Positions 1,991 through 26,161 of a stretch of DNA of 64,000 nucleotides are shown piece by piece. Numbering within the stretch: the stretch's first letter is position 1; every line of letters starts with the position of its first letter. The notes under the pieces were generated by a model that did no database searches, was not told the DNA's origin, and saw only the letters and a list, made by a program, of their open reading frames with translations. The DNA comes from Eledone cirrhosa (taxonomy: Eukaryota), in the NCBI GenBank assembly GCA_964016885.1, contig OZ024741.1, positions 373,302,001 through 373,366,000 of the forward strand. Direction: 5' to 3'. The position numbers and the translations under genes were made by a program.

Positions 1991-2975
1991 CCATCACTTC
2001 AACACTTGCCACCACAAACACTATCACCACCAACACCATTAACACCACTACTAGCATTGCCATAACCTACTGCTACACTTACCACTATTAGCCTCACTTT
2101 CACCTCCGTTGGCACCCTACTAACTAACTCCACCATTGCTACATTTACAACCATTACTAACTACAACCGCCTTCACCATTACTACCATTGCCACTACTAC
2201 CGTTAGTTCTCCTACACCCACCACCACCGTCACTACCACCACTTCAGTCACCAGCACCACTACTACCATTAGCTCCCCACCACCACTAGTGCCTCTAGCT
2301 CTATCACTACTTCAACCACTACCATTAGCCTCACCACTACTGCCTCTAGCTCCATCACTACTACTACTTCAACCACTACCATTAGCCCCACCCCCCTCCC
2401 ATCACCACCTCTACTGTCACTAACACTACTACTACCATTAGCTCCCCACCATTACTGTCACCACCACCAGTGTCACTAGCTCCATCACTACTACTACTCC
2501 CACCATTACAGCCACCACTACCAGTGCCACTAGCTCCATCACTACTACTACTCCCACCACTACCAGTGCCACTAGCTCCATCACTACTACTACTCCCACT
2601 ACTACCAGTGTCACTAGCTCCATCACTACTACTACTCCCACCATTACAGCCACCACTACCAGTGCCACTCCCACCATTACAGCCACCACTACCAGTGCCA
2701 CTAGCTCCATCACTACTACTACTCCCACCACTACCAGTGCCACTAGCTCCATCACTACTACTACTCCCACCACTACCAGTGCCACTAGCTCCATCACTAC
2801 TACTACTCCCACTACTACCAGTGTCACTAGCTCCATCACTACTACTACTCCCACCATTACAGCCACCACTACCAGTGCCACTAGCTCCATCACTACTACT
2901 ACTCCCACCACTACCAGTGCCACTAGCTCCATCACTACTACTACTCCCACCACTACCCCCACCACCACCACAATG
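1975..2975. repeat. (CAC/TAC)-rich low-complexity region with a 42/54-bp minisatellite (about 2460-2960)
   Basis: Unit ccactaccagtgccactagctccatcactactactactccca with an optional ccattacagcca insert; the ORFs here are repeat artefacts. Confidence 0.9.
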
Positions 2976-3569
2976 GTTGTCACTTCATTAACACCTTGGT
3001 TATTAATCTTCAATTATTAGAACTAATGTACCAAAGATTACAAAAAAATATGATAAGGATTTCTAATTTAGGCACAAGGCCAACCATTTTAGTGGGAGGG
3101 AAATTCGATTATGTTGATCCCGGTATTTTATATCATTGACCCCCAAATTGACAATCAAGAAACATTTCGAAAATTCATTGTAATAATCTAGTAATTTTGT
3201 ATATAAAGAGCTAAGCCATGACACACTGAGAAAGGTATCTCATCAAAATTATAATAGAGAGAGAGAAGATGCAAAAGAAATAACAAAAATATGAGAAAGG
3301 TGAAAAAATGGACAGTTGAAAAGCAGTGAAATGTTTAAATTGTTGAATTTTTTTGTAGCCGCCATTCATTGGAAGATCTTGTTTAGATTTTTCAATAAAA
3401 CTTAATATCACTTAGCTTTCTTTTTTATATATATTTCTTAATGATACATTAGTAAGTTGACTATGGTTCTACCTGTACATACCAGCCAGAGACAGTCACA
3501 GGTTTTATTCAACAAATTTCAATTAAAGTATATAATGTTTGGAATAAAAAAGATGTTTTAATTGAATAA

Positions 3570-4540
3570 TAAAAGTAAGGTTCCAGACTCTATATAAAAG
3601 AAAGATGTCAGAAAAAGGATGTCAAAAGAATTGCTGCATACAATAGTCAGCAACACCCACTGCATCAGCAATTCCACCCATGGGGCTGCTACTTCATGCA
3701 GGATGCTCTCCTCCAAATTTTGTGAAGGAAAACAACAGTTCAAGGAATAAAGATACCAGAAGGAAGCAGTCAGTCAAGTCCCAACATTTGGTTATCTTCC
3801 ACACCTCTCTGTTATGGGTAAAAGTGTTTGGGTTTGGGGCTGACAAGCTTGGAGATGGAGAACATGTCGCAGCATATGGCATCCCAGTTTAGAGATTTAC
3901 TCCTCTTGAGTGGGAATACGTTTATCCCATCTCAGTCCTTACCATCACCATGGCTGAGGCTAGCAGGCTCCTGTTTGATGGGAAACCAGCCATGTCAAGA
4001 CTAGATTTTTTTTTTAAATACTCACTTCAAGAAAGGCAATAAAGCCAATAAAACCCAAGGGGTTACTGAGATGGGGAAAGGATAAGACAAAGAGGACATA
4101 ATTCAAGGATAGAGAAGATAATCATTGATGTTGCTTTTAAATTTTTGCAAATTGTAGAGGCCAGGAAAGCAAGAAGCCAGAAGAGAATTCCATAGGTGAG
4201 ATGTGTGAGGAAAGAAACTATCAGAATAGAATTTATGAATGCATTTAAGAACTTCAACTCTAAATGGATGATACCTTGCTGCTAATCTAGCGATCTGTTT
4301 AAACTCATAGAGATGAGGCAACAAGAGTAACACTCACCAGAACAATTCCCATGAAAATATTTATAAACAAGGAAAAGTGGGGCAACATTTCTATGGTGTG
4401 ATAGTGATTGAAGCCAACCTGAAAAGTCAGTATCAAGAATGATCGTGATTCTTCTTTGGATCTTATCCAAACTCTCAAGGTATATAGTAAAAGTACCAGT
4501 CTAGATGTGGGCACAGTATTCAATACAAGGTCAAATGATA
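3570..4540 (-). pseudogene. Decayed CR1/Jockey-group LINE fragments (RT C-terminus and APE-RT linker)
   Basis: Minus-strand peptides DKIQRRI...LQSLSHHRNVAPLFLVYKYFHGNCS, SFFPHTSHLWNSL and REVWK...NCCFPS are typical of this LINE group; multiple frameshifts. Confidence 0.7.
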
Positions 4541-4844
4541 AATTTATAAAGATATATAAATATGGTTGGTACTAGGAAGGGCATCCAGCCATAGAAAACC
4601 TGCCAGATACAGTCCTATATGAGCGAGACACGGTCACCCAATCAATCTAACCTCAAGTGGGATAATTCCTGTCTAACCCATGCTAGCATGGAAGATAGAC
4701 ATTAAACGATGATGATGATGATGAGGATATATATAGTCTCTTTAAAGAAGAGGAAGAATATTATATGAAGAATAAATAAGAAGTTACACAAGTTTGAAGT
4801 TGTATTTTTCCTGCAATACATAGTTTAAAAAAGAGTTTGCTAAA

Positions 4845-5115
4845 GTCTATCTCAAGCTAAGAGGCTCATCAGGCCAGTGCTTATCCTGGTTTCCTTAGCA
4901 ACTGAGTGTACAAGATTACCATCTAGGCAGGACATCAGTTCATTGCAGTGTTAACTCCTCAGTTATTGCTGGTACTCATTTTCAGCTGAGTGTACTGGAG
5001 CAACATGAAATGAATGTTTTGTTCAAGAACACAATGCAGTTTCCTGTTCCAGAATCAAACTCACAACAATATGATTGTAAGTCCAATACCATAACCACTA
5101 GGCCATATACCTTTC
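4845..5115 (-). mobile_element. tRNA-derived SINE (second type)
   Basis: Reverse complement has tggcctagtggttatggtattggacttacaatc...tgttcttgaacaaaacatt; related copies at 10755-10970, 24645-24920 and 48438-48715. Confidence 0.7.
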
Positions 5116-5465
5116 ACATAACTCCATGTAATTGCATTTATTCCATCTGTCTAATGTAGTTCGAAATGTATTAGTCTGGTGTATAGCCACATCACAGTAT
5201 AATTAGCATAATAACATTCAACAGAAAAATTGAATAAATAACATGAAAACTCTAAAAAAAAAATGAAGGTAGATAATAATGTACATGTTTACCACAAGAC
5301 GATAACTGACGCTATATATTAATTTAGGATTCTTAGTATTTCTTGTCTTCAGCTAGCTAACAACCTCATATGATCCACTATCAATATTAATCTCTGTATT
5401 GCAGTCTTACACTGATGAAATGCTTTCTACAAAGTGACAGCTACTACTACTAGCAGCTGCTGCTG

Positions 5466-5466
5466 C

Positions 5467-5535
<69 letters not shown>
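5466..5535. repeat. (TAG)n microsatellite
   Basis: Perfect tag repeats. Confidence 0.95.
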
Positions 5536-6159
5536 AGATTCAGTAAAAAAAATACACTTTACAATTTTGGAAAGTGGAAATGTTAGTCTACAAAAACTAA
5601 GCTTAGTTGCTTATATATATAAACTTATATATATATATGGGTGTGTGTATGTATGTATATACTTATATATATATATACATGTGTGTGAGTGTGTATGAAT
5701 ATAAACAAGCTGATGAACTATGTAAGATGCATAGATTGGATTGTAAATCACTCAAGATAGATAGAATATACTGAGGAATAAATATAGATGCCAACAGCAT
5801 AAAAAGAATGAAATATAAGTAATTGGTAAGAATTGAACCGATTTCTCCTTAGTGTATTAACCACAATGTTCAGATGATTGACCAATGTCCATTAGTCAAA
5901 TGAATGTATGTGAGTGATTGCAATAGAGACTTAATGCTAATTGCTATAATTGCATTTCCTCTTAGCGTGACATTCTTTGTTTCTAACTTATGACCAATTC
6001 CTTCTGTGCCCTGTCTCCAAAGTAGAGACCTTTTGCCAATTTGCTCAGGTTATTTTAGGAATACAAGAAACATATATCTATTTCTATCTCAGTCCATCTG
6101 TGTGTCTCTTTCTCTCTCCCTCTTGCATATGCAAATGTCTCTGTGTGTGTGTGCGTGTG

Positions 6160-6707
6160 TGCAGGAGAGGAGGTTGCATTGGTATGGACATGTGCTGTGT
6201 ATGAAGGATGACAGCTGCATAAAAGGTGCAGAGCACTAAAATTCGATGGAAGCCTTGGAGTGGGGAGACCCAAGAAGACCTGGGATGGGGTGATAACAGC
6301 CGACCCTGCTCAATTGCACTTCGCAAAGGTGATGGCACAGGACCGTGAGCTCTGGCGTCATGCAATAATACAGAAGACCCGACTTCCCACGGGCACAAGC
6401 CGAAGCTGAAGCATATAGACAATATGCCCCCACACCCTCCCACTGCAAAGTGGGAGTGCAGGTGTCACGGCAAAAAAGCACCCAGCCCACACTGTAAAAT
6501 GGTCATATAGGCGCCACAGAAAAAAAACCATCCAGCACTCACTGTAAATGAGGTTGGTGTTAGGAAGGGAATCCAGCTGTAGAAATCAAGCCAAAATCAG
6601 TTCCCGTATAAGCAAGATAAGCTCACCCGACCTGGCACTGCCCACAACAAGACAACCCGTCCAACCCGTGCTAGCGTGGAAGAACGGACATGTGATGATG
6701 ATGATGA
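6160..6707 (+). mobile_element. RTE LINE 3' fragment
   Basis: QERRLHWYGHV...GRPKKTW, followed by a 3'UTR matching the 52007-53865 copy and a (GAT)n tail. Confidence 0.85.
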
Positions 6708-7888
6708 TATATATATTTAATAAATAAGACAGAGGGTTTTAATCATACATCTTCATTTTATTATCTAATTCCATTATATGTATTTCAAAGATGCAATTGT
6801 GGTTATATAATAACTGCCTAGCAGGTTTTTTTCAGATGAATTGAGATGTGTTTTTCTATCTATTGATATGTTACTGGTTTAACATGGTGTTAACATCGCT
6901 GTCCAGTACTCAATACAAGGTCTGAAATGTTGATTATATGCAAATCAGAGTCTCTTTATCTATCTTGAACATTGTACAAGTTATTGCAGCCTTCAGAAAT
7001 TTTAAAGTGTTATGAGGGCATTGATTGAATTCCCTCTCAATTATGTAGTGGGCTAATGGATTCAGGTCTGAAGAGCTAAAAGACTATATATTTGAGGTGA
7101 TCATAGAGATTCTAACTCATCTATTCTTAGGTTATCTTAGCCTTTGTTTGGCAAGCTTTCTATGGCTGGATGCTATTCCTATTACCAAGCACTTTATAGT
7201 GTGTACTGGGTGAATTTATCATGTAGATCACCAACTCTAGAGAGGTTATAATGCTGTGACACAACTGAGTGGTCCTCCAACTCTTTTCAAGCATGATTTC
7301 TACAGTGGGGTGCCCTTCGTGCCACCAGCCACCTTAAAGTGTGTACCAGGTGCATTTCTGTGGCACCAAAGATAGTGAGGTTGCTGGTCCCAACAGAAGA
7401 GCCATCTTCAGGGGGTTGTGGTATGATATGACAAGGTGATGAGTGAGGAAGGGGAAGGGGTGCATGGATAAGTCAGGTATTGTATACTATTTGTCTACAC
7501 CAGCACAACATAGCACCAGCCCTTGTGGTCCTTTGTCATTAATATTCTACTCAAATAATGTAGAAATTATAACCCTATTAGAAGCCAATGAAGTGTAGAT
7601 ATGAATATCACATCAAAGGAAAGCAACATTTTTTTTTGAGGAAAAGTAGTATCTTATTACATGTCACTGAGTATTCATGAACTACAATGTATTAATTAAG
7701 TACTAATCCTTGTCTTATTTGTTTTCATTGATAAACCATATATATATATATGTGTATATATAATGTAGGAGGTGAGTTTTATTGTAGCACAATAAAGCAA
7801 TGCAAATATCGGATAAGTAGCACTCAACAGTTTATAGGACTGGAGTATAAATAATATAAGATCAAAAGATGATTAAAAGAGTTCCATG

Positions 7889-7959
7889 TATTTTATTATG
7901 CGCATTTCAAAAACAAATATCATCATGGGATGATATTTGCGTTCTCATCAGATAAAATA
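7889..7959 (-). ncRNA. Minimal type I hammerhead ribozyme
   Basis: Reverse complement: tattttat CUGAUGA [long stem II] GAAA ugcgca UA auaaaaua. Confidence 0.8.
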
Positions 7960-8220
7960 GGGAGACATGATATGAAGCTTAAAAAACACTTGCGAGCAGC
8001 GAAATGTTAAATCTACATATGAAAAATAAAATAAGATGGATATATGAGATTGGGAAAAAAAAGAAGGAAGGGGGAAGGAAAAGGTAAGGAAGAGGAAGAA
8101 AGAAAATAAAGGATGATGGTGGAGGAGTATAAGATGGAAGGATGAGAGAGGAGGAGAAATGAGTGAGAGAGATAGCCTTTAATACTGAGAAACACTGTCT
8201 CACAGAGAGAAATTTAAAAA

Positions 8221-9197
8221 TCCAATTATTATAATAATGCGCTTTCCAAAGCCGGTTATCCTGACAAAATTAAATACAGTAAAGAAACCAATCATCGAAG
8301 GACTTATAATAAAATAGTTAGTTATGAAGATTCCAATAACTTAAATAAAAGACCTAGATACAAAAAGATGATTTGGTACAACGCTCCTTTTTCTCTATCT
8401 ATTACTAGTAATATTCCTAAACTATTTTTAGGGCCTTAGATAAATGCTTCCCTCCCTCGCATATCTTATTCTACCACTTCCAACATCTCTAACATTATCT
8501 CTAAACACAATAATAAAATATTAAATAATAAATTATATCCATCCAACACTGAGCATCATAATAATAGCAGTAGTACTCCCGACGTCAATGTTGACTCTAG
8601 GCTAGATTCAGTAAATTTAAATACGACGTTAAACGTAACTTTGTTGAATGTTCATAACACCAATCTAAATCAGGAAACTTTAGCACCTATCGTAAATAAC
8701 TTCTCCAATCCAATTCCTTCTATAAATAATACTAGGTCACTTGTTAATAACTCTGGTAATTTATCTAATCGTAATTGCCCTGTTAGAACTAAATGTCCTC
8801 TTAATAACCAATGCCTTGATAAAAATTTAGTGTATGAATGTAAGGTTATAACTGGTACTAATTCTTTTACCTATTTTGGTTCCACTTCCACTTCCTTTAA
8901 AGCAAGATTTTATAATCACAATTCGTCTTTTAAATACCAACTTAAAAGAACTAACACGGCACTCTCAGAACTCATATGGTCCTTAAAAGACAACAATATT
9001 AACTAAAACATTTCTTGGAGGAAGGTTTGCAACGCCTCTACTTACCAAAATTGTTCCCTATCCAGAACATGTAATCTCTGCCTAGCCGAGAAATTTACCA
9101 TTATCTCTAATTTTAATTCTATAATAAATAGACGTACGGGTTTATTTTCGCTCTGCTTGCATAAATCCCATAGAACTTTCCATAAAGTATACAGCTA
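8221..9197 (+). pseudogene. Penelope-like RT C-terminus plus GIY-YIG endonuclease, disrupted
   Basis: Frameshift/deletion near 8430-8470 and a stop at 9004-9006; the ORF track shows 8641-9006. Confidence 0.8.
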
Positions 9198-10156
9198 ATA
9201 TCTCACTACCTAATTAGTTTAAAACACTTTTATATCTTTTACAAATATACCCATCTTTCTACCTTATTTCAGTATATTATATTATACAATTTACTCATTC
9301 TATGTCATTAGCAGTCCCCTATTTTTCTTCTTTTTTATCCTTTTTTCCTTTTTTCTTTTTTAATTTCTAATCTTTAATCTGTAACTTTTACTTCTCAATT
9401 ACTTCTTAACTCATATTATTACTCACTATAGCATCTTGCTTATATTCTTGGCCATACAAACTATATTTTTAATATATACTAATATTACCATTAGTAAATT
9501 TTGTAAACATATATTTTTTTGACGTTATATATTTTTTCTTCCTTAAATTTTCTTCTTTCTTCTCTCCTTCCGTGCTCGTATTAAACCTATTATTTACTTT
9601 TTCATATTACAATACATAGAAACAAACTTAGACCCTAACTAATTCCTCTAAGTTCATAATTCATTTAATCTCTTCTTCATTCACCTTATCTCCTTAATTC
9701 TCCTTAATATTTTTATTTTAATAATACATATTAATAAATTCCTTTTCGCACATATTATTAAACCCTTCAATATATAAACCTTAAATAAATACTATTCTTA
9801 ATTCCTTTTTCTTTAATCATAAACATCACCATTCATAAACCTCATTAACTTTTAATTTCAAAATTTTTTTAAAATTATGTATTATCTTACAACGGTTTTT
9901 TTTAAATTTCTCTCTGTGAGACAGTGTTTCTCAGTATTAAAGGCTATCTCTCTCTCTCACTCATTTCTCCTCCTCTCTCATCCTTCCTTCTTATACTCCT
10001 CCCCCGTCATCCCTTATTTTCTTTCTTCCTGACCTTTTCCTTCTCCCTTCCTTCTTTTTTTCCCAATCTCATATATCCATCTTATTTTATTTTTCATATG
10101 TAGATTTAACACTTCGCTACTCGCAAGTGTTTTTTAAGCTTCATATCATGTCTCCC

Positions 10157-10227
10157 TATTTTATCTGATGAGAACGCAAATATCATCCCATGATGATATT
10201 TGTTTTTGAAATGCGCATAATAAAATA
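10157..10227 (+). ncRNA. Minimal type I hammerhead ribozyme
   Basis: 8-bp helix I tattttat/ataaaata; CTGATGA 10165-10171; stem II gcaaatatcatc/gatgatatttgt; GAAA 10208-10211; palindromic tgcgca; predicted cut after 10219. Confidence 0.85.
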
Positions 10228-10257
10228 CATCGAACTCTTTTAACCATCTTTTGATCT

Positions 10258-10293
<36 letters not shown>

Positions 10294-10354
10294 TATCATA
10301 TCATATCATAGTACGAATATATATATCATATTATATATATATATATCATATTAC

Positions 10355-10668
10355 GAATGACCAAGGTTTTGTACCGAAAAAGTTCCTCTCCAAGGCATAA
10401 GCCTGGGCAATGTATGTTTGTAGAAGACCAGCAGTTGCCTATGCATGCAAGTCTTCCCTCTCCATGCCACCAACGCTGTTGAAGGGAAAGGCAATGGCCA
10501 ATACAGCTTGGCACCAGTGACATTGCAACTCATTTCTACATCTGAGTGAACTGGAGCAATGTAAAATAAAATGTTTTGCTCAAGAACACAATGCACCACC
10601 CAGTCCAGGATTCAAACTCAGGACCTTACGACTATGAGCTCAATGCTCTAACAACTAAACTACATGCC
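10355..10668 (-). mobile_element. tRNA-derived SINE
   Basis: Reverse complement has A/B-box-like tagttgttagagcattgagctcatagtcgtaaggtcctgagtttgaatcctgga; a plus-strand relative lies at 29145-29490. Confidence 0.75.
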
Positions 10669-11453
10669 TTGATATATATATATCATCATTATCATCATCA
10701 ATATGAGTTTTACATATGTTTGCCATGCTGGTTTGGATTGGACAGGTTGTCTTCTCAGTGTTGTGTGTTATGTTTTTGAGCAAAACACTTCATTTTACAT
10801 TGCTCCAGTATATTCAGCTGAAAATGAGTACCAGCAACAGCTGGTGGTTTAATCCTGTGATGGACTGGTGTCCTACCTAGGGGAAATCTTGTACTTTCAG
10901 TCACTTAACACCATGGAAACTGGGATAAACACCAGCCTGATGTGCCTTCAGGCTCGAGTCAGACTTCAGACTATTTTTTTAGACATAAGTGTAAAATTCA
11001 TTATAATTGTGTGTTGGTAAATTAGGATAATTTTCCCATTTTTAAAGGTTTCAAGCAGCCGATGTTAGTCAGCCACATATGTACTACATCCAATCTGTTG
11101 CGTGTATGTGTGTACACACACAGGTGTGAGTGTATGATCCTAATTAAATGTTGGGTAGCCAATTTTAGTACTAAAAATAGTAGATATTTATGTATTTAAA
11201 TCAAGTATTGCTGTAGACAGAAAAAAAAATCTATAAAATAGAATCAAAAGTTTGTTAACTGGTAGTTATCAAACTAATTGATAATTTGGTTGGGAAACAT
11301 TAAAGCGACTGGGGTCCTTGGGTTAGAAAACAGTTGGTGCAGCTCCCAGCACCTGTTTGCAACAATCTTTATAAAAATTAAAAATGCATACAAATGTAGG
11401 CCTACACATAGAACAATACTGAGATTCCAGCTTTGATCCATGCCAAACTCTAA

Positions 11454-11671
11454 ACCTTTAGCATTTAAACTGGCCATATCCAGCCATAATTCTCTCACCT
11501 TTCTGTTCAAACCAGCCCTAACTGGCCACTCATACTAATGATAAGGTATTTTTCTCAAAATAAATAACATCAAAATCACGTAGCTTTGATATTATGTGAG
11601 ATAATATTGTGAAATAAAGCCTTTACCTCAAAAATACAATAGTAAATATTGAGTGATGTAAAAATAAAGGG
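11454..11671. mobile_element. piggyBac-type MITE (family 1)
   Basis: cctttagcattt...taaaggg flanked by (c)TAA and TTAA; empty site visible in the adjacent duplicated unit near 11917. Confidence 0.75.
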
Positions 11672-12053
11672 TTAAAGCAGTAGTGACATTTAAAGAAAAG
11701 TGTATTTAATAACAATTATAATATTCTAATGTGATTCTATCCTACACTAGTGTTAGATATAGACTGCAGTGATTTCTATTAAATAACCAGCGCCAGATTA
11801 AAGCAACTAGGATGTGTTGAAGAACATTTGGAGTCCCCAGTACCTGCTTGTGAGGAACTTAACATAGGCCTACATATAGAACAATGTTGAGATTCCAACT
11901 TCAATACATGCCAACTTTTAAAACAGTAGTGACATCGAAAGAAATAAAGAAGTTTATGTAATAACAATTATAATATTCTGTTTTGACAAAAATGTATTTC
12001 ATAGCTATATATATATATATAATGATTGCACCACTACACTTACGATTGCATAG

Positions 12054-12104
12054 GCATCTGATGAAGTCACATGCCTAACCATGTAATAGAAATATATATT
12101 ATGC
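12054..12104 (+). ncRNA. Minimal hammerhead ribozyme (solo Penelope pLTR remnant)
   Basis: gcat CTGATGA a-gtcacatg-cctaac-catgtaat-a GAAA tatata TT atgc; flanked by (TA)n tracts. Confidence 0.65.
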
Positions 12105-12367
12105 AATAAAGCAGTTATGGAGAAATAATCCCGACTTAACTATTCTTATTTGATAAATGAATACTCTGTCACTCCTAATCACCAATTCTTAGCTGGGATA
12201 AACTACTGCAGTGAAGTGCTTTTGAATCACTCGAACTGACTTATCCTCAAGAAGTTACGACATGACAACTACTTATAAGTAACATTCTTCTGCAATATGT
12301 ATATATATATATATTTAATAAGTAGACGGAACTAGCATGAGTATCACTGCTAGGACTGGTTGCATCT

Positions 12368-12481
12368 CAGAAATGGCTTCTACATGACTAGAACTGTTTC
12401 ATTCAAAAGAAATCATCAGGAAAGCTTTCCTGGTGATTTCCTTCAAATGAAACAGTTCTAGTCCTGTAGAAGCCATTTCTA
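12368..12481. repeat. Fold-back palindrome with hammerhead-like cores in both arms (family Y)
   Basis: agaaatggcttctacatgactagaactgtttcatt...ggaaagctttcc...aatgaaacagttctagtcctgtagaagccatttct; a related copy lies at 58812-58946. Confidence 0.8.
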
Positions 12482-12549
12482 TATTAAAAACTTATGCTTG
12501 GCTATGTATTGAGTATCTTACTGTGGTTACCTCCAATTAAACCTGGGAT

Positions 12550-12580
<31 letters not shown>

Positions 12581-14139
12581 AATGAACACACAAAGAAATG
12601 TGTTTTGAATTACATGGGGTGAAAACCACTTTAGTGCAATGCATATAATCTACGAAAAAACGAAATATACATAATACCCGGAAAAAGTAAATTAAAATGT
12701 ACTAACCATTTTAATGACTATTAAACTCCTGGACAAACTACAGATAGAGTTTGTTTCGCCGAAAATTAGTGACTGTGTCATAGAATCTCAGGGCTTCTTA
12801 ACAGGAGTAAGGATTGTAGGAACAGTACTCCTAGAGATAATTTAGGTAACTAAATATCGCACGTGGTATAGTAAGTGAACGTGTGAAACCATATGCGACA
12901 GACAGCACATAGAGGCATGAGTGGATCATAAAACGGCTAGAAATGGCAGTCTAAAGCCACTCAACTTCAAAGACTCAACAAACAACGAGAGAAATTGCTA
13001 GGAGCCAATATATATATATATATATATGTTTCCTAGCTATATTCTAATACCAGAAATGGAGAGATCTGTTTAACATAGATTTATTATATTACACACATTT
13101 CAACAATGATCAGATTCTAAACTTTCCTTTGGTCAACACAACTTCACCTTAGAAATCAAAATATCACATTGAATGCTGAATGTGGCTTACACCAGGGTTA
13201 ACTGCAATTCATAATAAACTGATATATATATTAATATATATTTTTAATTAGATGAGGCTTCTGAGCTGTAAGTCCCTGGGTTGCAGCCAATGTAGCCCCT
13301 ATTTAAATCTGATACTGTATCTTGGTAACATTAATATTTTTGTTACCATATTTTTAATGAAATACACTCTATTTCAATTAATTACTGATGAATTTTGATG
13401 TATTTACAAAAAGTATTAATTATTTTATTACAAAGATAGCAACTTAACACATGGCTCTTATATAAAATTATGTTGAAAGATTTTAATTTATATAGGAACT
13501 CTTTCAAATGAATGGCTTTGTTTCATAGAACCAATAGTGGTTTTGGTGGATAGGTATCAAAATGGTTAACTAATAACATGACAAATAGAAGTTATGGGGA
13601 TGACCAGAATGTAGAGAACTGGTAACTCACTCTAAGACATGTTGACTCCTTTTCATAGTTGATTTTTCAATTGTACATCCACACTCGAATTAAATATTTA
13701 ACCCTTTTGATACCAACCTGCTCAAAGTTTAGCGTTACACTTGATTTAACCCTTCTGATACAAAACCACCTGAAAATAGCTCAAGTCCTAATTTTCAAAT
13801 CAACTTGTTTTAAAACCTTTTTATACCAACCTGCTCAAAATTGCCTCTGGTGCTATGAAAGAAAGCCACTGATTTTAAAAGGCTGTTATCTAAATTAAAA
13901 TCTTCCAACATAATTTTATATAAGAACCATTAATTACAAATCCTATATTAATAATGAAATTTATAATTTTAGTAAATCCCTCAAAAATTTGTTTATTAAT
14001 TAATTGAAAAACAATGTATTTCATTATAAATATGGCAATGAAAGGCTTAAATATTTAAATGAAACATCCCATAGTTTCATAAACAGACAATATTTCTTTG
14101 ATAACAAAACTCTTGTTGAAAGAAAACAAAGCAACAGTC

Positions 14140-14217
14140 ACTTACTGATACACTTTCTCAGCAATTTACTTCGTACTTACCTGGAAAAAGAAGAAAGAAA
14201 GAAAGAAATATTATTAG
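14140..14217 (-). promoter_or_regulatory. Candidate recursive splice site (ratchet point) with a 35-nt cryptic RS-exon
   Basis: Minus strand: CTAAT (14217-14213), 25 consecutive pyrimidines (14208-14184), CAG|GTAAGT junction at 14181/14180, second GTAAGT at 14145-14140. Confidence 0.6.
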
Positions 14218-14569
14218 AGGATAAAGTAGAAATATTTGCTCTGGAGGGCCTAAATTTTCTCCACAAAGGAAACAATTTCAGAATAACATATTAGTTTCAT
14301 AATTAATTTTACTATTGTTAACAACAATGCAGCTGGGATAAACTGTTATAGAAATTTAGAAACATAGACAGCAAATACTAAACATTGTATTAGATTAAGA
14401 AAGAAATAGTAAAATTGAACACTTTCAACAATTGTATTGCCAATAGCAAACTTTACAGAAACAAAAATGTAATTCCATGTTAAATTCATATAATTGCCCT
14501 TAATTATCTAATTTTCTTGTTTTCACACAAGGCAATGGTAGATTGAGTTATTTAAAGATAGATATAGAA

Positions 14570-15200
14570 AATAGAGAGAAAGACTGAGAGTGAGGGAGTG
14601 TGATTATAGATGCATTTGTGTATGAGTGTATGTGTGTAACTGAGTGTGTGTGTGTATGTGTCATTTTGTGTATGTGTGAGGGACTTTGTGTATGTATGTG
14701 TGTGTGATATTTTGTGTATGTGTGTGTAAATGTGTGTTTGTGACTGTGAGTATGGAGTCTGTGTGACTTTGCATAAGTGTGTGTGTGTGTGTATAGGCAA
14801 ATGTGTATAGATATGTGTGTGAGTGTGTGTGAATAATGTGTAACTTTGTTAGTGTGTATGTGTGTGCATCTATGTAAATATATATCTGTGTGAATGCATG
14901 TGTCTATGAGTTGCGTGTCTATGTAAGCATGTATATATATATGTATGTGTCTGTGTGAATGTGTATCTGTATGAGTGTGTGTCTATGTATTTGTGTTTGC
15001 ATCTCTGTGAGTGTGTGTCTGTGTGTGTGTGAGTGTGTGAATGTGTCTATCAGTTATGTGTCTATATAAGCATGTATATATGTATTTGTCTGTGTCAATG
15101 TGTATCTGTATGACTGTGTGTCTGTTTGTGTGTGCATCTGTGTGTGTGAGTATGTGTGTGAATCTGTCTAGGAGTTATGTGTCTATATATGCATGTCTGT
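14570..15200. repeat. Degenerate (TG)n-rich low-complexity tract
   Basis: Continuous tgtg/tatg repeats. Confidence 0.9.
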
Positions 15201-15326
15201 GTTAATATTTAAATAATTATCTTCCACAAAAGGAACACCTCAGGAATTTTGTATTATTTTGTAAATATAATTTTTTTTTAAATAGGAACTAACTAGTTTA
15301 ATAAATACAAGTTGAAGATTATTATT

Positions 15327-15515
15327 AGGTGGATTGGCAGTATCAGTAGAGAGTCAGACACCATGCTTTGAAGTATAAAGTTATGTCCCTTTATGATCTG
15401 AGTTCAAATTCCACCGAGGTTAACTTTGCCTTTCATCCTTACGGGGTCGATAAAATAAAGTACCAGTAATGTACTGGGTAATTGCTGGCCTTGTGCCAAA
15501 AGTAGAAACAATTAT
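15327..15515 (+). mobile_element. tRNA-derived SINE (short, young type)
   Basis: ggtggattggcagtatc...ctgagttcaaattccaccgaggttaactttgcctttcatcc...ttgtgccaaaagtagaaacaattatta; near-identical copies at 19298-19468(-), 28760-28972(-), 35241-35433(+), 38505-38622(-) and 39290-39470(-). Confidence 0.85.
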
Positions 15516-15964
15516 TAGTAGATATTTCCAGAACATGCTGACTTCTACCAATCTATATTACTTAACACATTCTAAATCATGAAGGTGTGTGGCTTAGCGG
15601 TTAGGGAATTGGATTTGCAATTGTGAGGTTACAAGTTTGATTCCCAGACCGGGTGATGTATTTTGTCCTTGAGCAAGACACTTTATTTAATGTTGCTCTT
15701 TCTGTCAGGAGTTGCAACTGGTAGATAGTATCAGCAATGGAATAACCAATAGAAACATTGTTTCCTTGGTATGATTTGTTGAGTTCCACTCCACTTGGTA
15801 AGAGAATGAGGTCTGAAATCATTTTGATCAGTTCTCCCATCCATTGTGAAGGAATGTTGCTTAGTGGTCAGAGTACTGGTTTCATTATCATAAGGTTGTG
15901 GGTTTAATCCCTGGACCATAGGGCATGTTCTTGAACAAAATGTTTCATTTCAGGTTGCTTTTCA

Positions 15965-16200
15965 TGATAGGACTGGGGCCCCTATAATTAAAACACCTGA
16001 GAATCCTTCTATGTGATACAACCTGATGAGAGACCTACTAAAGCTGCAGTGGCTTAGTTGCTCTTTCTAACAGAGTGAGCGACCACATAGAGTTTCCATT
16101 GTAGCCTTGACCTATGCAGGTTTATTTGGCCCTCATACAAGGTTGTATCTCATAGGAGATTTCTCAGGTGTTTTAATGAGAGGGACCTCATTCTTATAAT
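15965..16200. mobile_element. MITE-like inverted repeat inserted in a SINE
   Basis: ttaaaacacctgagaatcc...gatacaacct is mirrored by aggttgtatctcataggagatttctcaggtgttttaa. Confidence 0.55.
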
Positions 16201-16922
16201 GTTGCTCTTACACCTCACTGTGTTAGAAATAGCAACCAAACCACTTTTAATGACAGCCTGTTGTCTTGACCTTTTTAATAGCAAACCACCTGGTTGTAAA
16301 ATACAAAACTCTTGGCTTTAAAGTGTTTTTATTTATCTAAAAAAGTTTCCACCATAATTTTATGTAAGAACTTTTGTTAAGTTATGTTCCAAACATCAGA
16401 TAAATAATCAGAAAGTCAGTTATATAACTAAAATTTTCCAAATCTTTAATTATTTTAATAATTATTTGAAAATTAGTCAAATAAAGATAATGTAGTTCCT
16501 GATATACAAAAATAAAAAAAAGATGAGATACTCATTGTTGAAACACATTTGATCATAGATCTGCTTGATCAAGTTTGACCTGGTGTTAAACAACAATGGC
16601 AACAACAATAAATCATAGGTAACTAGTTCTGTTTTTTTGTGGACTTAGCAGAGTAATAGAAAGCAATTGGTCCTGTGGGAATCCCCCTCTTCAATTAGAA
16701 ACAACCACCAAATAACAAAGATCAATATGACATTTTTAATGGGTTTTTTGTGTGTGTGTGTCTGGTGAGGAGATGGGATCCACCAAGTTTTAAAAGTTGC
16801 ACATATATAGACTTTTAAAACTTGGCAGATCCCTCACCAGACACTCACAAAAAAAAAAAAAAGAATTGGATCCGCACAGCACATGCCAGGACAGCCCATC
16901 ATGTCCATCAATGGAAAATAAA

Positions 16923-17288
16923 AGACAGCCTAGCATGTGACTGTGGGGACCTTGACCAGACAACCCAGCATGTACTGTGGGGACCCTGACTAGACAGCTC
17001 AGCTTGTGACTGTGGAGACCCTGACTAGATAACTCAGCATGTGACTGTGGGGACCCTGACCAGACAGCCCAGCATGTGACTGTGGGGATCCTGACTAGAT
17101 AACTCAGCATGTGACTGTGGGGACCCTGACCAGACAGCTCAACATGTGACTGTAGGGACTCTGACTAGACAGCCCAGCATGTGACTGTGGGGATCCTGAC
17201 TAGACAGCCAAGCATGTTACTAAGGGGACCCTGACTAGATAGCTCAGTATGTTACTGTGGGGACACTGACCAGACAGTGCTGCATGTT
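16923..17288. repeat. 35-bp minisatellite, about 10.5 copies
   Basis: Unit agacagcccagcatgtgactgtggggaccctgact, tandem without spacers. Confidence 0.9.
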
Positions 17289-17475
17289 CTTCGAGATTGT
17301 TCCATCAGACATTTTCCCAGCAATCCATAATACTATAAATGATGCCTTAGTCTGGCTCACCAATCTCGAAGTGTCACTCTAACCATTGTGCATATGTCAT
17401 ATGACAAGAAGGTTTTAAAAAATGCCCAAGAAATACTGTATGTCAACTGTGGTACCCCTTCAAGTTATGGGTCAA

Positions 17476-17698
17476 TCCTTTAACATTTAAATCTGCTGTG
17501 TATCCGGCCAGAATTCTTTCACTTCTTTCTGTTCAACCAGCTGTAACCAGCCACTCATACTGATGTTAAGGTATTGTTCTCAAAGTAAATACTATCAAAA
17601 TCTCATAGATTCAATATTATGTGAGATAATTATGTGAGATAAAGCCTTAACTGTGAAAATATAATAGTAAATATAATAGTAAGTATAATGTAATAGGG
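17476..17698. mobile_element. piggyBac-type MITE (family 1), diverged
   Basis: Internal sequence matches 11454-11671 and 63677-63907. Confidence 0.65.
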
Positions 17699-17827
17699 TT
17701 TAACTCAACACACACACATATATATTATATATCATATAGATTTTTAAAAATTGGAATTTTGACATTGCTACCATCACTACTATCACTGTCACTATTCTCT
17801 CTTGCCCACATACTCAGACACACTTAC

Positions 17828-17914
17828 CATCCTCTTTCCAACATATCAGACATTTTATATGACAGGTACAACAGTTTTAATGCAACAGATAATCAGTTAT
17901 CATCAACTCTATCT
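17828..17914 (-). other. Candidate 87-nt exon of an unidentified minus-strand gene, possibly containing a start codon (MSDMLERG...)
   Basis: Acceptor tgtttcttcag| at 17915 and donor atg|gtaagtg at 17827; ATG at 17853 in an aaaATG context; non-repetitive sequence. Confidence 0.35.
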
Positions 17915-20421
17915 CTGAAGAAACATAATCAATGAGTTTAGAGAAAGTATGCTTCAGAGTTCAGTTAAGTAGGAAGCTCAATCAATAGCAGATACAAATA
18001 AAATGATTAATCTTCCACGAGGTAATGTGATGGAACACTGTTTTATTAGTATATTCAGTATATTGGTATTGGTCATACTTCATCATTTGAGTGGCATTTC
18101 ACATTTATTTTCAGTAGACCATCTTCAGTTTTAATAGTAAAACTATCATCATCATCACCATCACCATCGTCATTTTACATCTGCTTTCCATGCTGGTATG
18201 GGTCGTCATGGTTTGAGATTGGACAAGTTGCAGAATCTCTTCTTATTTTTGATATAGGTTTATGGTTGGATGTCGTTTATAACACTAATTACTTTACTAA
18301 GTGCATTGGGTGCATTTCATTGTGGCACCAGCACTAGAGAGGTTATTATGTCCACAGTAGAACTAAAAGAGGATCCTCTCAAACCTATATGGTCTTAATC
18401 CAATAATTACCACTTTTTAGATTCCACTAATTTCATGAAATGTATTTTGAATGTATTTAAGAGCTGTACTTGTTTGACAAGTCACTTGTGATACAGAGTG
18501 GAAGTGTGCTAACGACCACCTGGTCACTGACATGATAAGACAAGATATTAACAACACTATTAACTCTTGTAGTGACCTACATTCCGCGGGCTCATATATA
18601 TTCTCCATGCGTTATTTGGCTCAGCCCAGCCAATGACCGCCAGCAGAGGAGAATTTATTTCTACACGCCCCGAGGGAAAAATTCCCGCGTCGATTCGAGA
18701 AATCTTTCTCTTGCAGCCTGACCATGGAAAGGTAAACTATTTTTATTTCACCATGAAATCACTAGCCAATATGTAACACAACAATTTAACCATGGCCTGG
18801 CAACAGTAGACCATGCAACAGTAGACCGTGCCTTCTGAAATCTTAATTTGTTTGTTTTATTTCTCTTGGTATACCAGCTCTACTCAGCTCAACCTTTGTT
18901 AATAAATAATGTAAAACATGCTAAAGTCGTTATCGATATTCCTATCATAACTTTCTACCAAACTGGTTACTCGTGGCGCTATAACTATTACATTACTACT
19001 TCTATATAATACTAAGACAGAGGAGTATATAAGTATGAAATGCTCCTTTAAAATATATATATACATTCAACTATTCTTCCTGTTAAACTCTTAATATCCT
19101 GTAGTGATTTAGCAGAAAATATGTTTGAAAATGATTTTGTTAATGCAAATGTTTATAGTATCCTTACTAGTGGACAGAAAATTGTGAAAATTTGCTGCAT
19201 TGGAATAAACACATTAATTTTTAATTGTCGGCCCGTCTAACCCATGCTAGCGTGGAAGAACGGACGTAAAACGGTGATGATGATGTCTCTCCTTTTGGCA
19301 CAAGGCCAGCAATTATCCCAGTGCATTACTGGTACTTTATTTTATCAACCCCGTAAGGATGAAAGGCAAAGTTAACCTCAGTGGGATTTGACCTCAGACC
19401 GTAAAAAGCCGTAACTCTATGCTGAAAAGCATGGCATCCAACCCTCTACCAATACTGCCAATCCACCAATTTTGAATGTGACACAGTCATATTGTTGTTT
19501 TGTACTTTTCAAGAATGTCTTGCTAATTGAGGTTATTTGCTGTACCGGATATTAACCTTCAGCACACTGAATTATTTTATGAATTGCTTCCCTTGACACT
19601 GCATTATGTATTAAGGGGAGATTACTCTATTCTCGCAATTTGTCGCCCACAGTGCTTTAAAGGTTAAGAGTTAATAAGTAAATGCAAAATGTAACTGCCC
19701 CCATCCTCTCAAATGAAATTTTAAAAAACATACAGAATAGGTAATGAGTTAATACCGTTCTTGATCACCTTACTTTGATTTGCAACTTGGCTTCTCCTTC
19801 CTGTAATACAAAACCACATTCTTATCCTTCAGATAGATTTCTGTATTCTTCTCTTCAGAGTATGGGGTAAGCTATTCAAAGACTTCAGGAAATGTCTCAA
19901 TTATCATGTTCAATAAGTTGGCTAGTAATATGGTTTCTTCCTTCTTTAGTTGTTTTTGCTCCCCATAGAACATTTGATGACTTTTATTGTTTCTGTAGTA
20001 ATTTTACTTAATGGAGGTAAGGTTACTAGCCTTCCACACCATCTAAATTTAAATATTAATCTATGATAAAATAAAGCAACGAAGAAAAACAAAATGGAAA
20101 ACATCTTATCTTCTATCTTATGTCCAAAAGTTATATATATTCAAATCTCAGCATCATAGCAAGATAACACAAAATTATTATCATCATTATTTCTAGACAG
20201 AAGTTTCTTTAAAATATTAAACTTTGACATTGATAAAGGTAATGTCAAATATGGTTTGGGTATTTGTATTATAATTGTGATAAAAAAGTGGTTTAATCAT
20301 ATTACCTTATGAAAGATTAATAATTCATCTGTATCTGCAATTGATTAAACTTCACACTTAATCCTTCTGATACCAAATCCCCTGAAACCACATCTGAATC
20401 GCAGATGCAAGACTGTTTTAA

Positions 20422-20598
20422 CCCTTTACCATTTACATTACTCTATATTTACTATTATATTTTCACTTTAAAGGCTTTACCTCACATAATTATCTCACAT
20501 AATATCGAATCTATGAGATTTTGATATTATTTATTTTGAGAACAATACCTTAATATAAGTATGAGCAGCCAGTTATGGCCGGTTTAAATGCTAAAGGG
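20422..20598. mobile_element. piggyBac-type MITE (family 1) nested in a family-2 TTAA MITE
   Basis: TTAA-ccctttaccattt...aaatgctaaaggg-tt. Confidence 0.7.
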
Positions 20599-21329
20599 TT
20601 TAAAGTGATTATCATCTTCATCATTTAACATGTTTTCTTTGCTAGCAATGGTTGGACATGTCATCACACATAGTCAGTACTCAAATGGAGCCTGACATAC
20701 GATCCCATACTCTACCGAATGCATTTTATCATGGCACCAACACTGTCATGTCATATTGACCCCAATACCTGACTGGTTCTTTATTTTTATCAACCTTGAA
20801 ACAATGAAAGGCAAAGCTGATCTCAGGGCCATAACAAAATACTGCATTAACAATTCTGCTGATCAATGTAATTGAATGGACCTATGATCAAAGATGTCCC
20901 AGCCATGACCATCTCATCATTTTGTATATTTGGGACTAGATTATCCAATTCTTTAAGATTGCAGGCTGTCATTTGAGCATGATTTGGTTGTTATTTCTAG
21001 CAAATTGAGCTGCTACACTTAGAGACACTGTTATTGTCTCAATCTATAAATTTATTGTTGATTGAAACTAACTTTTTCTGGAAGTATCTACTCATCTAAT
21101 ATTGGTGCAATACTCTTCAAATTATATCAAGTATTCAGTCAATTTATAGGTGTCATAAAGAAGGTATTTATTACATCTATAAACTGTTTTTTTCAATGTC
21201 TAAAAAGATACTGGGGGTGGTGTGATAAATTTTATGTCTGTGTGGTTAAGAAGTCCAATTTGAAACTACATAGCTCTAAGTTTGTTTTTTCCTGAATGGA
21301 ATTTAATAGATGGAAACTGTGTGAAGCCT

Positions 21330-21695
21330 GTCATCATCATCATCTTTTTATGTTGACTTTTTTATGTGATAGCACAGGTTAGATGGGTTTTTCCAGGACT
21401 GCTTCTCACCACATACCATGTTCCTTCATTATTTCTTCTGTCAGATGCAGCATTTTGAGAGCCACTCTCATCACTTCTGCCCAGGTCTTCCTTGGACTTT
21501 TTTTACTGCAGCTTCCTTCTATTGAGAACTTCTGACACTTCTTCCCCTAACAATCATTATCCATACACATCACATGTCCATACCAGCACAGTCTTCTCTC
21601 CTGCATACTACATTTGATTCCTCTTATACCCGTTTGTTTCTCCCAGTCAATTAGTATTTTCGCCATTCATGCATATTGACATCACACATCCAATC
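21330..21695 (-). mobile_element. Decayed RTE 3' fragment
   Basis: Reverse complement encodes QERRLCWYGHVM...PRKTWAEV and ends in (GAT)n. Confidence 0.7.
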
Positions 21696-23426
21696 ATTTT
21701 ATATCATAAGTAATTTTGACGGTTACTTATAAGTTTTACCATGTGCCCAACTTAATAAGGCTATTTTATTGAGCCAGGCACACAGCCAAAATTATGATTA
21801 ACTGTCACAATTTCTTATAATATAAAAAAAAGAAACGTATATTTTCCAGCATAATATTCCTCGACTTGTTGTGCTCCTTCATCATCATCATCTTTGTGTG
21901 GTTCAACATCTTCAGATCAGCTTTCTTTGCTTCTTCCCATGTCTTTTTTTTTTTTATCTTCTTTCACAGACACATTCTGCCCAAAGCTCCTGCCACTTCT
22001 TCATCCAAAGATCGTCATCTATATGCATAGCATGTGTATACCAGTGAAATCTTTCCTCTTTTACATTACATCTGGTTCCTCTTTCGCCCAGTTTTACCTT
22101 CAGAATATGTGTGCTTCATCATTCATGTGCACAAACATTACACATCCAGCATAGCCTGCTAGCCTCATTTCATTCTAAACTCTGCATTCATTTGGTGGAA
22201 CACCTTAATGGCTCAACATTATCACAATACTCGTGTATGTAATATTACCTGTCCGACACATGACAAATACTTTGGGGAGTATACGTGTGCCATTGAGAGT
22301 AACATCGGATAATGTTACATAGGTAAAATAATTATGATTTTAATTTTTTCAATTTTCATAAAATTGTGAAATGAATGTTAATTTTGAAAAATAATAATAG
22401 TTATTAATTTAAAATAAGATAAAATAAAACAAATAAATATTTAGAGATAAATAAATAACATTATAATTCCCTGTAGCTGCATTTGACTAAAATTATTCAT
22501 ACCAACTTTCACATTCAAACATTACAAATGTAGTGCTAACGTTTTTGATACCAAACTGCTTGAAACTGCCTCTGGTCCTATGTTTCAAAACTTATTTTAT
22601 TTTAGAGTGTTCATAGTTATCTAAAAACCTTTCATCATAATTTTATGAAAGAAACTTATGCTTAGTAATGAGAAAGTTAGTTATGTTACTAAATCGTTCC
22701 AAATCCTCCATTATTTTAAAATCATAAGCAATATCGTTCATTAGAAATATAATGATGAAAACAATTTGAGAAAAATAAAAAAAAATTTGAGAAATGGAAT
22801 ATACATTTTCCTATCTGTGTATTCCAAGAATATGTTACTTTGTACTAAAACTGTAAGCATTCGCTTTTCATTCATAACTTTCAATGTATGTGTGGATGCA
22901 TATCAGTTCATTATTTAATTCGGTGAGAATGTTTTTAGTGTTGCAAAAGTGACGGGCAAACAGAGAATATACATGTGGGAATCATATTATTAGATTTCTT
23001 CTTATCCAGTTATACACATTCTTATTACTTTGCCATTGATGAATAACTTTGTAGTTGGTCAGTTGGAAGTGGGGTGGAGGAGCTAATGCCTTGAAGCTTA
23101 CATATGAAAATCCATTCCTTTTTTGCTCTAGCTTAACATATGTATTAGTTCTGTCATTGTAGTTTATGTGTTTGTAGGTTCAATAAATATTGATCATCAA
23201 TTCTTCACAAGCTGATATTGTTTATTTTCTGGAAAGGGATAAGTTTCAAAGACAGAGATGTGTTAGTCATAAACTATATTCTCACTAATAAAATCAGAAA
23301 ATATGATTCACTCAGCATCAATTTTCTGAACTTCATATACAAACAGCCAGTAACATCTATAACAATATTTCATCTTGCATTTCTTAGATTAAATTAAAGG
23401 CATATTCAAATTTAGATTAATATATA

Positions 23427-23471
<45 letters not shown>

Positions 23472-23475
<4 letters not shown>

Positions 23476-24125
23476 GAATAAGAGGGATCAGATGCTGTTT
23501 ACTTGAGAGAAGATTATGTTGGTATGGTCACGTGATGTGCATGAAAGATGACAGCTGTATAAAAAAAGTGCAGGGCTATCAAAATGGATGGAAGTTATGG
23601 AGTAGGTAGACCCAGAAAAATCTGGGACGACATGATAAAATCTGACCTTGCACACTTACACCTCTCTAAGACAATGTCATTAGATTGAGACCTTTGGCGC
23701 TACGCAGTAATACAAAAGACCTGCCTTCCCTTACATACAAAGTTAAACCAACAGTTAGTAGGCACCTCTTAACCAAATATACACCCCACTCCCCCTACTC
23801 CATCCTCCCACTCTCACCACCTTTCTCTGTAAAGTTATGTTGGTACCACAAAACATCCAGTCCACACTAAAGAGGTTGTGTAGGTGTCACGGCAAAAAGC
23901 ACCCAGTCCACGCTATAAAGTGGACATGTAGGAGACACGGTAAAAAGGCTCCCAGTCCACACTGTAAATGTGGTTGGTGTTAGGAAGGGCATCCAGCCGT
24001 AGAAAAATGCCAGATACAGTCCTATATGAGCGAGACACGGTCACCTGATCAATCTTGCCTCATGTGGGACAATTCCCATCTAACCCATGCTAACGTGGAA
24101 GATAGACATTAAACAATTATGATGA
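23472..24125 (+). mobile_element. RTE LINE 3' fragment with long 3'UTR
   Basis: GIRGIRCCLLERRLCWYGHVM...GRPRKIWD; UTR matches 57730-58127. Confidence 0.85.
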
Positions 24126-25791
24126 TATATATATATATATATATTATCATTATCATCGTTTAATGTCTATCTTTATATATAGCAGATACTCTGTAAAGTG
24201 GTAATGCTGGTACAATGATAGAATACACATAGTATATTCTGTAAAATATTTGGTAGAAAGGAAGAACATCCTGTTACAGAAACCATGCCAAATTATAAAA
24301 CATGTTAAGCAAGATGTGGTCCTCCAACCTGACTAGTATCAGACCGTGATGACTTGTTCACCCCATACCAGCATGGGAACCAGACATAAAATGATGGTGA
24401 TGAGAATGATGATGATGATAAGTTACTGAACATCTAGTTTCTGAACTGACTGATTATATAAACAGTATTTCTATGCTATAGCAATGTTTTATCTTGCATT
24501 TCTTAATTTAAATTAAAGAAGTACTGACATGGCTATAAAATTGAGGCTTGTTTGCATAATTGCAAATGAATCGAATGCTATTATTAATATTCGAAAAACT
24601 CAGATTACATTTATAATTTTAGATTAATATGTACTAAAAAAGTCTAAAGTCTCTCTCAAGCCTAGAGGTCCATCAGGCCAGTGCTTATTCTGGTTTCTGT
24701 TCTTTTAAGTGACTGACATTACAAACTTCCTCCTGGATAGGACACCAGTCCATTGCAGGGTTAAACCCACAGCTACTACAGCTGCTCATCTCAGCTGAGT
24801 ATGCTGAGCAATGTGAATGAAGTGTTTTACTCAAGAACCCAACACATAACCCAGTCCAGGAATTGAACCCATGACATTATGATCGTCAGTCCAACACACT
24901 TAGAACTAGGCCATATATTTTCAGTTTACACATTGTTATCAGTGTGGTAATGGCTACATTAACATGTCTCCCTTGCTATTCTCCAAGTAATGCTTTTTTG
25001 TTATTCTGTTTGCTTAGGATCATGAGATGCTTGCACCTGGAGTTCTGCATGCCAGAGAGTATTCCTTTACACTGTCTATGCAAGGATCATTGGGATAGCA
25101 ATGATTTAGGTTGCTAATATCTATAACATCTGTCTCCACCACACACACACACACACACACTCACACACACACACACACACACACTCACTCACTCACTCAC
25201 ACACACGATTTGTGCTTAGATATGATGAACCAGGTTACACATAAATATTTTTAGAGATTGCCATTTACTTCGAGATTAACCTCAATGAGATTTACTTTCA
25301 GACCAGTATCAATGGAACATATTTCCTACAATCAAATGAGTAAACAGCAAAACTCTCAACATTGTGTAATCTATTGTTATAAGAAATTTCAGTACAGCTG
25401 TTAGAAATGGATTGTGTATGCGATAAACACATGTTACTGTCACAGCTGCCTTATCAAGGAATAGACAACAATTGCAGCAAAAGACCACCTGTTTCAGTAC
25501 CATATAGAATATAAAAAGACTCCTATTTCTATACTCTACAGTTCATTTTATATCATTATTATCATCAACGTTTAATATTCTATTTTCCATGCTTGCATGG
25601 ATTAGACATGTTGTAATTTGCTGAGGCTAGACTGGTCAGTGTGACCATGTCCTGCTTGGACAACTCCATTTTGGCTTGATATCTTCAGCTGGATACTCTT
25701 CCTAAAGCTAATCCCTTTATGCACACATATATATATATATATGTACACACACACATATATATATAGATATATATATAGAGAGAGATACACA

Positions 25792-25991
25792 NNNNNNNNN
25801 NNNNNNNNNNNNNNNNNNNNNNNNNNNNNNNNNNNNNNNNNNNNNNNNNNNNNNNNNNNNNNNNNNNNNNNNNNNNNNNNNNNNNNNNNNNNNNNNNNNN
25901 NNNNNNNNNNNNNNNNNNNNNNNNNNNNNNNNNNNNNNNNNNNNNNNNNNNNNNNNNNNNNNNNNNNNNNNNNNNNNNNNNNNNNNNNNNN
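25792..25991. other. Assembly gap (200 N)
   Basis: Run of n; the true size and the continuity across it are unknown. Confidence 0.98.
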
Positions 25992-26118
25992 TTCCATTTA
26001 CCGTTTTCGGTGCGCCGGCCGACTAACTCACTCGATATGCAAATTAGGCTGCTCAACCGTTAATATACATAAGGAAAGTATATACTTTCAAACGTTCAAT
26101 CATCTGACAGAAAGGTAT

Positions 26119-26161
26119 ACGATGCTGACGATAGCTAATAAGCTTGAAACTAGTTCATCGT
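26119..26161 (+). ncRNA. Minimal hammerhead ribozyme in a CpG-rich Penelope-type pLTR next to the gap
   Basis: acgatg CTGACGA t-agct-aata-agct-t GAAA ctag TT catcgt; predicted cut after 26155. Confidence 0.7.

Follow-up and report, generated by a model that had tools for sequence, protein, structure and literature searches.

The 64,000-nt stretch of DNA analyzed here (the window; C2:373302001-373366000 of the 3.0-Gb Eledone cirrhosa genome, with positions in window numbering unless prefixed by C) lies inside a gene that we identified by homology as PDE4/dunce. An exon scan over 864 kb around the window returned one clear conserved coding exon, located at C2:373078485-373078309 on the minus strand, and its translation matches a PDE4 protein of Octopus sinensis (P0005) at 100% identity. 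This 58-residue exon, referred to below as the shared exon, matches no Pfam family, and we take it to be UCR1. Among the 15 listed members of the Octopus PDE4 protein cluster (27 in all), those that carry the shared exon show three different N-termini before it. Protein mapping placed these N-termini in three upstream exons on the minus strand: exon A, which starts at C2:373912911 (97%), exon B at C2:373471377-298 (26 of 26 residues) and exon C at C2:373226616-456 (79%). The PDE4 exons are collinear at one locus (C2:373912911-372748252, minus strand), giving a gene of at least 1.16 Mb, and cluster member P0127 carries both the PDE4_UCR and PDEase_I domains of Pfam.

By this homology mapping the whole window (1..64000) falls between exons B and C, in the first intron of PDE4/dunce. 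The preliminary description had proposed that the window sits inside a very long minus-strand intron, and protein mapping bears this out: the intron measures 392,812 nt from exon B to the shared exon, and 834,340 nt when the transcript begins at exon A, with exon joins and intron lengths inferred from proteins of other species (Octopus). Of 192 proteins retrieved, 58 share the exon B junction, RRHSW-C|FDV, with fish PDE4D isoforms, amphioxus and arthropods among them; in human PDE4D, it is presumably the 370-kb intron that follows the RRHSW exon. PDE4 has many promoters. One annotated Octopus vulgaris isoform, P0132, begins at a methionine located within the shared exon, so the gene may also have non-coding exons upstream of it.

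Several other features of the gene were recorded along the way. Octopus isoforms P0123, P0127, P0129, P0131 and P0133 contain two optional 7-residue inserts after the shared exon, which suggests tandem microexons in the next, 185-kb PDE4 intron. At C2:373503328-373511243, also within a PDE4 intron, lies a satellite array of 7.9 kb that repeats about every 31/62 bp. In the window itself, LINE-type endonuclease/reverse-transcriptase open reading frames (ORFs; Pfam RVT_1, Exo_endo_phos_2) run antisense to PDE4 at 31191-33710 (+) and 55135-56766 (+). Two more ORFs, at 8440-9006 (+) and 61095-61955 (+), have no Pfam match; by eye they resemble fragments of Penelope-type GIY-YIG elements, which is how we presume to read them. 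Finally, the region C23:4.79-4.88 Mb contains a cluster of at least 8 long, apparently intronless ORFs, 800-1700 codons in length, whose products share about 30% identity with the PDE catalytic domain.

On the minus strand, and thus in the sense orientation of PDE4, positions 14217 to 14140 carry an acceptor fused directly to a donor. Reading in the direction of transcription, a branch-point-like CTAAT (14213..14217) places an A at 14214, position -34, which we presume to be the branch point. It is followed by an uninterrupted 25-nt pyrimidine tract (14184..14208) within a 56-nt AG-free zone, and then by a 3' splice-site CAG (14181..14183). This CAG abuts a GTAAGT (14175..14180) with no intervening base, creating the AG|GT boundary of a ratchet point. 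A second GTAAGT, preceded by TCA, occupies 14140..14145 and delimits a 35-nt candidate cryptic recursive-splicing (RS) exon at 14146..14180. The preliminary description had reported CTAAT, the 25 pyrimidines, CAG|GTAAGT at 14180 and the second GTAAGT at 14145, and each of these elements reads base for base as it was given. Positions -5/-6 are TT and the branch-point-like word lies within -21 to -36, completing, with the long tract, the signals of a strong acceptor. The tract is also microsatellite-like in composition.

This arrangement is rare. Across both strands of the window, it is the sole site at which at least 17 of 20 pyrimidines precede AG|GTRAG, representing one of 14 AGGTRAG words. 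A looser pattern that tolerates two mismatches likewise matches once in the window against 0.09 expected, although 8 of 100 shuffles also reach one match. In the 3.0 Gb of the genome, the strict 29-mer has 7 matches, compared to one for the reversed pattern. Scored with our own simple weight matrix, the acceptor reaches 12.5, a value it shares with a second copy described below and the highest among the 7 RS-like acceptors listed in 1.06 Mb of the PDE4 gene; none of the antisense RS-like sites in the same 1.06 Mb scores above 7.2. Three looser sense-strand candidates (C2:373237738, 373125447 and 373060998) were not accepted, as they have no downstream donor within 130 nt. Used as a ratchet point, the site would cut the exon B intron into segments of 155,117 and 237,695 nt. 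The preliminary description had suggested a donor at 17828 as an upstream partner. That donor is actually at 17827 and has no support as a partner; the homology-mapped donor is 155 kb upstream.

We then considered what the 35-nt segment would do to the message. Exons A and B are both phase 2 and both end in G. Joining either of them to the site rebuilds a donor (TTG or TCG followed by GTAAGTAC) that matches the 11-nt U1 donor consensus at 8 of 11 positions, whereas the segment's own donor (TCA followed by GTAAGTGA) is weaker, with 6 of 11 matches and one wobble. Donor strength here is a simple count of consensus matches, not a MaxEnt score. The order of strength, 8 against 6 matches in favor of the rebuilt donor, is that of a ratchet point. 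The reading frame continues into the shared exon when the 35 nt are left out. The segment itself has stops in all three frames, and its inclusion after exon A or B brings a stop in the next codon, as in RS-exons. This stop falls far upstream of later junctions, which is also what a poison exon would show. None of the 15 listed members of the Octopus cluster needs the segment to account for its sequence.

Although the preliminary description placed the motif in non-repetitive DNA, its surroundings turned out to be partly repeated. A 558-bp segment (13756..14313) has a 94% identical copy 330 kb upstream at C2:373646148-373646697, on the same minus strand of the same gene, between exons A and B. 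Within this segment, approximately 13864..14079, its 3' half, is a high-copy interspersed repeat with about 40 genome matches near 80% and a contig depth of 20,000-126,000. The copies differ by 26 substitutions and an 8-nt gap, and their flanks are different; there are no differences over 14085-14263, a stretch of 179 bp spanning every splice signal. When the core was compared with all of the remaining alignment, the contrast was clear (0/105 versus 26/445 differences, p 0.008). Omitting the repeat and using only the unique flank reduced it (0/105 versus 5/129, p 0.07). For this reason, and because a recent duplication or gene conversion also explains the identity, we treat the identical core as weak evidence of constraint. 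Together, the site and its copy would cut the exon A intron into 266,261, 330,384 and 237,695 nt.

DNA contigs from three runs of one study, which may derive from the assembly's own sample, reach roughly twofold depth over the shared core and over the copy-specific letters, making it unlikely that the second copy is an assembly error. Given the different flanks, the 26 substitutions and 8-nt gap, and the presence of both sets of letters in the contigs, we rejected an assembly artefact as its source. Tandem duplication of the gene was rejected too, since only 558 bp are shared and there is a single PDE4 locus. We saw no target-site duplication by eye, and no genome match spans either breakpoint of the duplicated segment. 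Between exon A and the upstream copy lies a separate 51-nt exon-like segment (C2:373693557-373693507, minus strand) with a strong acceptor and donor; it is frame-preserving and stop-free in phase 2, and it is absent from every fetched protein. A second duplicated RS-like cassette exists elsewhere in the genome, with its two copies on different chromosomes (L094, C1:356294163, and L108, C3:203096774) and 88% identical over 333 bp.

The preliminary description had also suggested scanning the genome for enrichment of pyrimidine tracts ending in YAG|GTAAGT on the sense strand of long introns; a genome-wide scan found YAG|GTAAG enriched. With a 16-pyrimidine tract fixed in all four patterns, the 3.0-Gb genome contains 73 cases of YAG|GTAAG, 43 of YAG|HTAAG, 50 of YAH|GTAAG and 398 of YAH|HTAAG (odds ratio 13.5), compared to roughly 5 cases of YAG|GTAAG expected under independence. 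Because ordinary exons often start with GT, we additionally counted how often AAG follows that dinucleotide: 73 of 1531 times after YAG|GT and 50 of 10088 after YAH|GT, with about 28 expected for the former from base composition. Even if none of them had a role in recursive splicing, 5 to 28 of the 73 genomic sites would be expected.

We compared the first 30 of these 73 sites with the first 30 of the 43 YAG|HTAAG controls. A branch-point-like word precedes 20 of the 30 sites and 5 of the 30 controls, a contrast that is inflated because the controls contain microsatellite ends. A second donor at +12 to +120 follows 18 sites and 3 controls, against a background of about 19%, and T occupies +6 in 24 and 11, respectively. 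The AG-free zone and open-frame length do not differ between the two sets of 30. With each of two duplicate pairs reduced to a single member, the site counts become 18/28 for the branch-point-like word and 16/28 for the second donor. The sites also tend to come in pairs. Seven pairs lie 30 kb-1 Mb apart versus 1.7 expected, and all seven are on the same strand; one is the PDE4 duplicate, while each control set contributes one pair at this distance. Same-strand pairs at C1:355.9/356.3, C2:294.4/295.1, C4:221.44/221.49, C4:228.0/228.7 and C6:77.6/78.2 Mb probably mark other giant genes. At one locus (L027), two RS-like motifs sit 1.4 kb apart on opposite strands (C21:19791521 minus, 19792916 plus), and the plus-strand motif, at the end of a long poly-T tract, may be a chance match.

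In four other site regions examined for host exons, we found a host in one. Searches around the sites on C4 (including the C4:221 Mb pair), C15 and C18 identified no host exons in 200, 100 and 100 kb, respectively. On C21, the host exon is the RRM exon of couch potato (cpo). The O. sinensis cpo protein maps from C21:22087366 to 21613859 on the minus strand, and the first intron, at 392,668 nt, contains two sense RS-like sites: one at C21:21960711 (L228, minus strand) with a second donor 50 nt on, and another at C21:21750096 (L177, minus strand) with a second donor 48 nt on. Long neural genes are enriched for recursive splicing anyway, and the region was picked for its same-strand pair, so we consider the two cpo sites to be suggestive and not proof. 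The same gene contains a 33-nt coding microexon at C21:21770230 (minus strand), located after a strong acceptor, that is present in O. sinensis isoforms X12/X15. It begins TTAAGT, one base from a ratchet donor, and is possibly an RS-exon turned coding.

The site in PDE4 has every sequence-level feature of a ratchet point with its RS-exon. The architecture claimed in the preliminary description stands: the full layout is on the sense strand and belongs to a class enriched genome-wide. We conclude that 14140-14217 is likely a recursive splice site with a 35-nt cryptic exon in the giant first intron of octopod PDE4/dunce. In the mechanism we envisage, the branch point, pyrimidine tract, AG and the donor 35 nt downstream would define a short exon. 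Exon B, 155 kb away, or exon A via the upstream copy, would be joined to 14180 before transcription of the intron is complete. The rebuilt donor (TTG or TCG before the hexamer) would then outcompete the RS-exon donor with its TCA, so that a second step removes the 35 nt along with the remaining 238 kb and the mRNA retains no trace. Transcripts that on rare occasions retained the 35 nt would meet a stop at once and probably undergo nonsense-mediated decay. If the upstream copy is used as well, transcripts from the most distal promoter would lose their 834-kb intron in three steps, of 266, 330 and 238 kb.

Alternatively, the main role of the 35 nt could be that of a regulated poison cassette exon, tuning the long PDE4 isoforms through nonsense-mediated decay, with the GTAAGT start either incidental or a minor path. 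Sequence does not discriminate between an always-skipped RS-exon and a regulated poison exon. In favor of the poison exon, the acceptor looks real, a perfect intronic hexamer lies 35 nt on, the stop is immediate after either upstream exon, and the two copies show no difference within the exon. Yet an identical 35-nt interior is unremarkable between segments that are 94% identical, and the exon's own donor is outscored by the rebuilt one. Furthermore, nothing in the function of a poison exon calls for a donor hexamer at its very start, yet such a start is enriched genome-wide, including the T at +6. We regard a principal role as a poison exon as unlikely.

A recursive splice site also accounts for the data better than chance does. 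A TTTC-type simple repeat could by accident have ended in CAG beside GTAAGT and been copied once by neutral duplication together with the adjacent repeat. The tract is indeed microsatellite-like, the duplicated segment includes a high-copy repeat, and 5-28 of the 73 genomic matches are expected by accident. However, both copies are in the sense orientation in a giant first intron, and recursive splicing is known for its human ortholog; the branch-point-like word, the T at +6 and the second donor are all present, and antisense sites in the same 1.06 Mb stay at or below 7.2 compared to 12.5 here. Such a coincidence seems to us quite improbable. Most improbable of all is that the segment is an ordinary short non-coding exon, or a terminal one, belonging to a PDE4 5'-UTR isoform that lacks annotation or to some other RNA from the minus strand: the methionine start of P0132 and the many PDE4 promoters leave room for this, but the 15 cluster members listed (of 27) can all do without it, ordinary exons would not favor a GTAAGT start, and two copies behind two promoters fit a per-intron function better.

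We also put forward, tentatively and as a possibility that we rate below even, a broader proposal in two parts that would have to hold together. First, molluscs, arthropods and vertebrates would have in common that the giant first introns of PDE4/dunce and cpo are spliced recursively, through bilaterian ancestry or because this re-evolved in the same introns. Second, the octopod cassette, a few hundred bases long, would be a portable module, multiplying through short duplications while introns expand. The idea of a portable module comes from one cassette serving two PDE4 promoters 330 kb apart, from the second duplicated cassette on two chromosomes, and from a cpo microexon that looks as if it arose from an RS-exon.

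Recursive splicing has RNA support in flies (10.1101/006163) and vertebrates (for human, PMC6110456), and there is a motif-level signal for other insects and sea urchin (PMC2773006). If our reading is true, it extends the mechanism to a third large bilaterian branch, and does so in the octopod orthologs of PDE4D and cpo, both of them published RS genes. It would become testable whether particular introns inherited their RS sites from an ancestor or whether such sites re-arise wherever introns become huge. The duplicated cassette would offer a rare glimpse of the birth of a new site, and the 73 genomic candidates form a list of primer targets. The mechanism is already known, and the octopod genes would represent a further instance of it in orthologs of published RS genes; since its presence in a mollusc is also expected by parsimony, the surprise is limited. 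The preliminary description was aware of no characterization in molluscs, and our literature searches on recursive splicing in octopus, cephalopod or mollusc likewise found no report. Searches combining recursive splicing with dunce returned nothing relevant, and PDE4D3 with RRHS gave no match. The available tables of PMC2773006 include no mollusc or other spiralian, and no mollusc is named in the available portions of a lungfish preprint and PMC10156609.

The evidence presented here is closest in kind to that of Shepard et al. 2009, which describes an enrichment of RP-site motifs in the large introns of four insects and sea urchin (PMC2773006), a motif excess without RNA. In mouse, PMC8797253 places RS sites in introns longer than 51 kb, mostly first introns, and counts PDE4D among the RS genes. 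For fly dnc, under the gene identifier used, the only site in the S2 table is not of high confidence (PMC6110457), and fly cpo has no row in the S2 table of Pai et al. under two gene identifiers. Competition between the rebuilt donor and the RS-exon donor has been described for fly and human sites (PMC8605326 and PMC6110456).

Human PDE4D is the nearest counterpart. According to PMC6110456, it has three read-supported saw-tooth RS sites (RS1-RS3) in nested 370- and 552-kb introns, which run from two promoters to one common acceptor. Octopod PDE4 belongs to the orthologous family and has the same nested giant first introns sharing one acceptor (393 and 834 kb), with RS segments of similar size, and the RRHSW-C|FDV junction is common to octopod PDE4 and fish PDE4D isoforms. 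The two octopod PDE4 sites are copies of one cassette, unlike the human ones, and we do not claim sequence homology between octopod and human sites. In flies, branch points of ratchet points lie mostly at -36 to -21, recursive segments measure 2.6-63.6 kb, and cpo has one intron with two ratchet points (10.1101/006163). Octopod introns are about ten times longer than those of flies, with segments of 155-330 kb, and while the human PDE4D sites have junction reads and a saw-tooth pattern, the candidate octopod sites are supported by genomic sequence. In architecture, fly ratchet points are like the octopod site, with AG|GTAAGT, a strong pyrimidine tract, TT at -5/-6 and a branch point near -30. 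Fly RS-exons are also like the 35-nt segment in being short, out-of-frame and cryptic, with a weaker donor and a place in a long first intron, and octopod cpo, with two sites in one intron, appears to match its fly ortholog.
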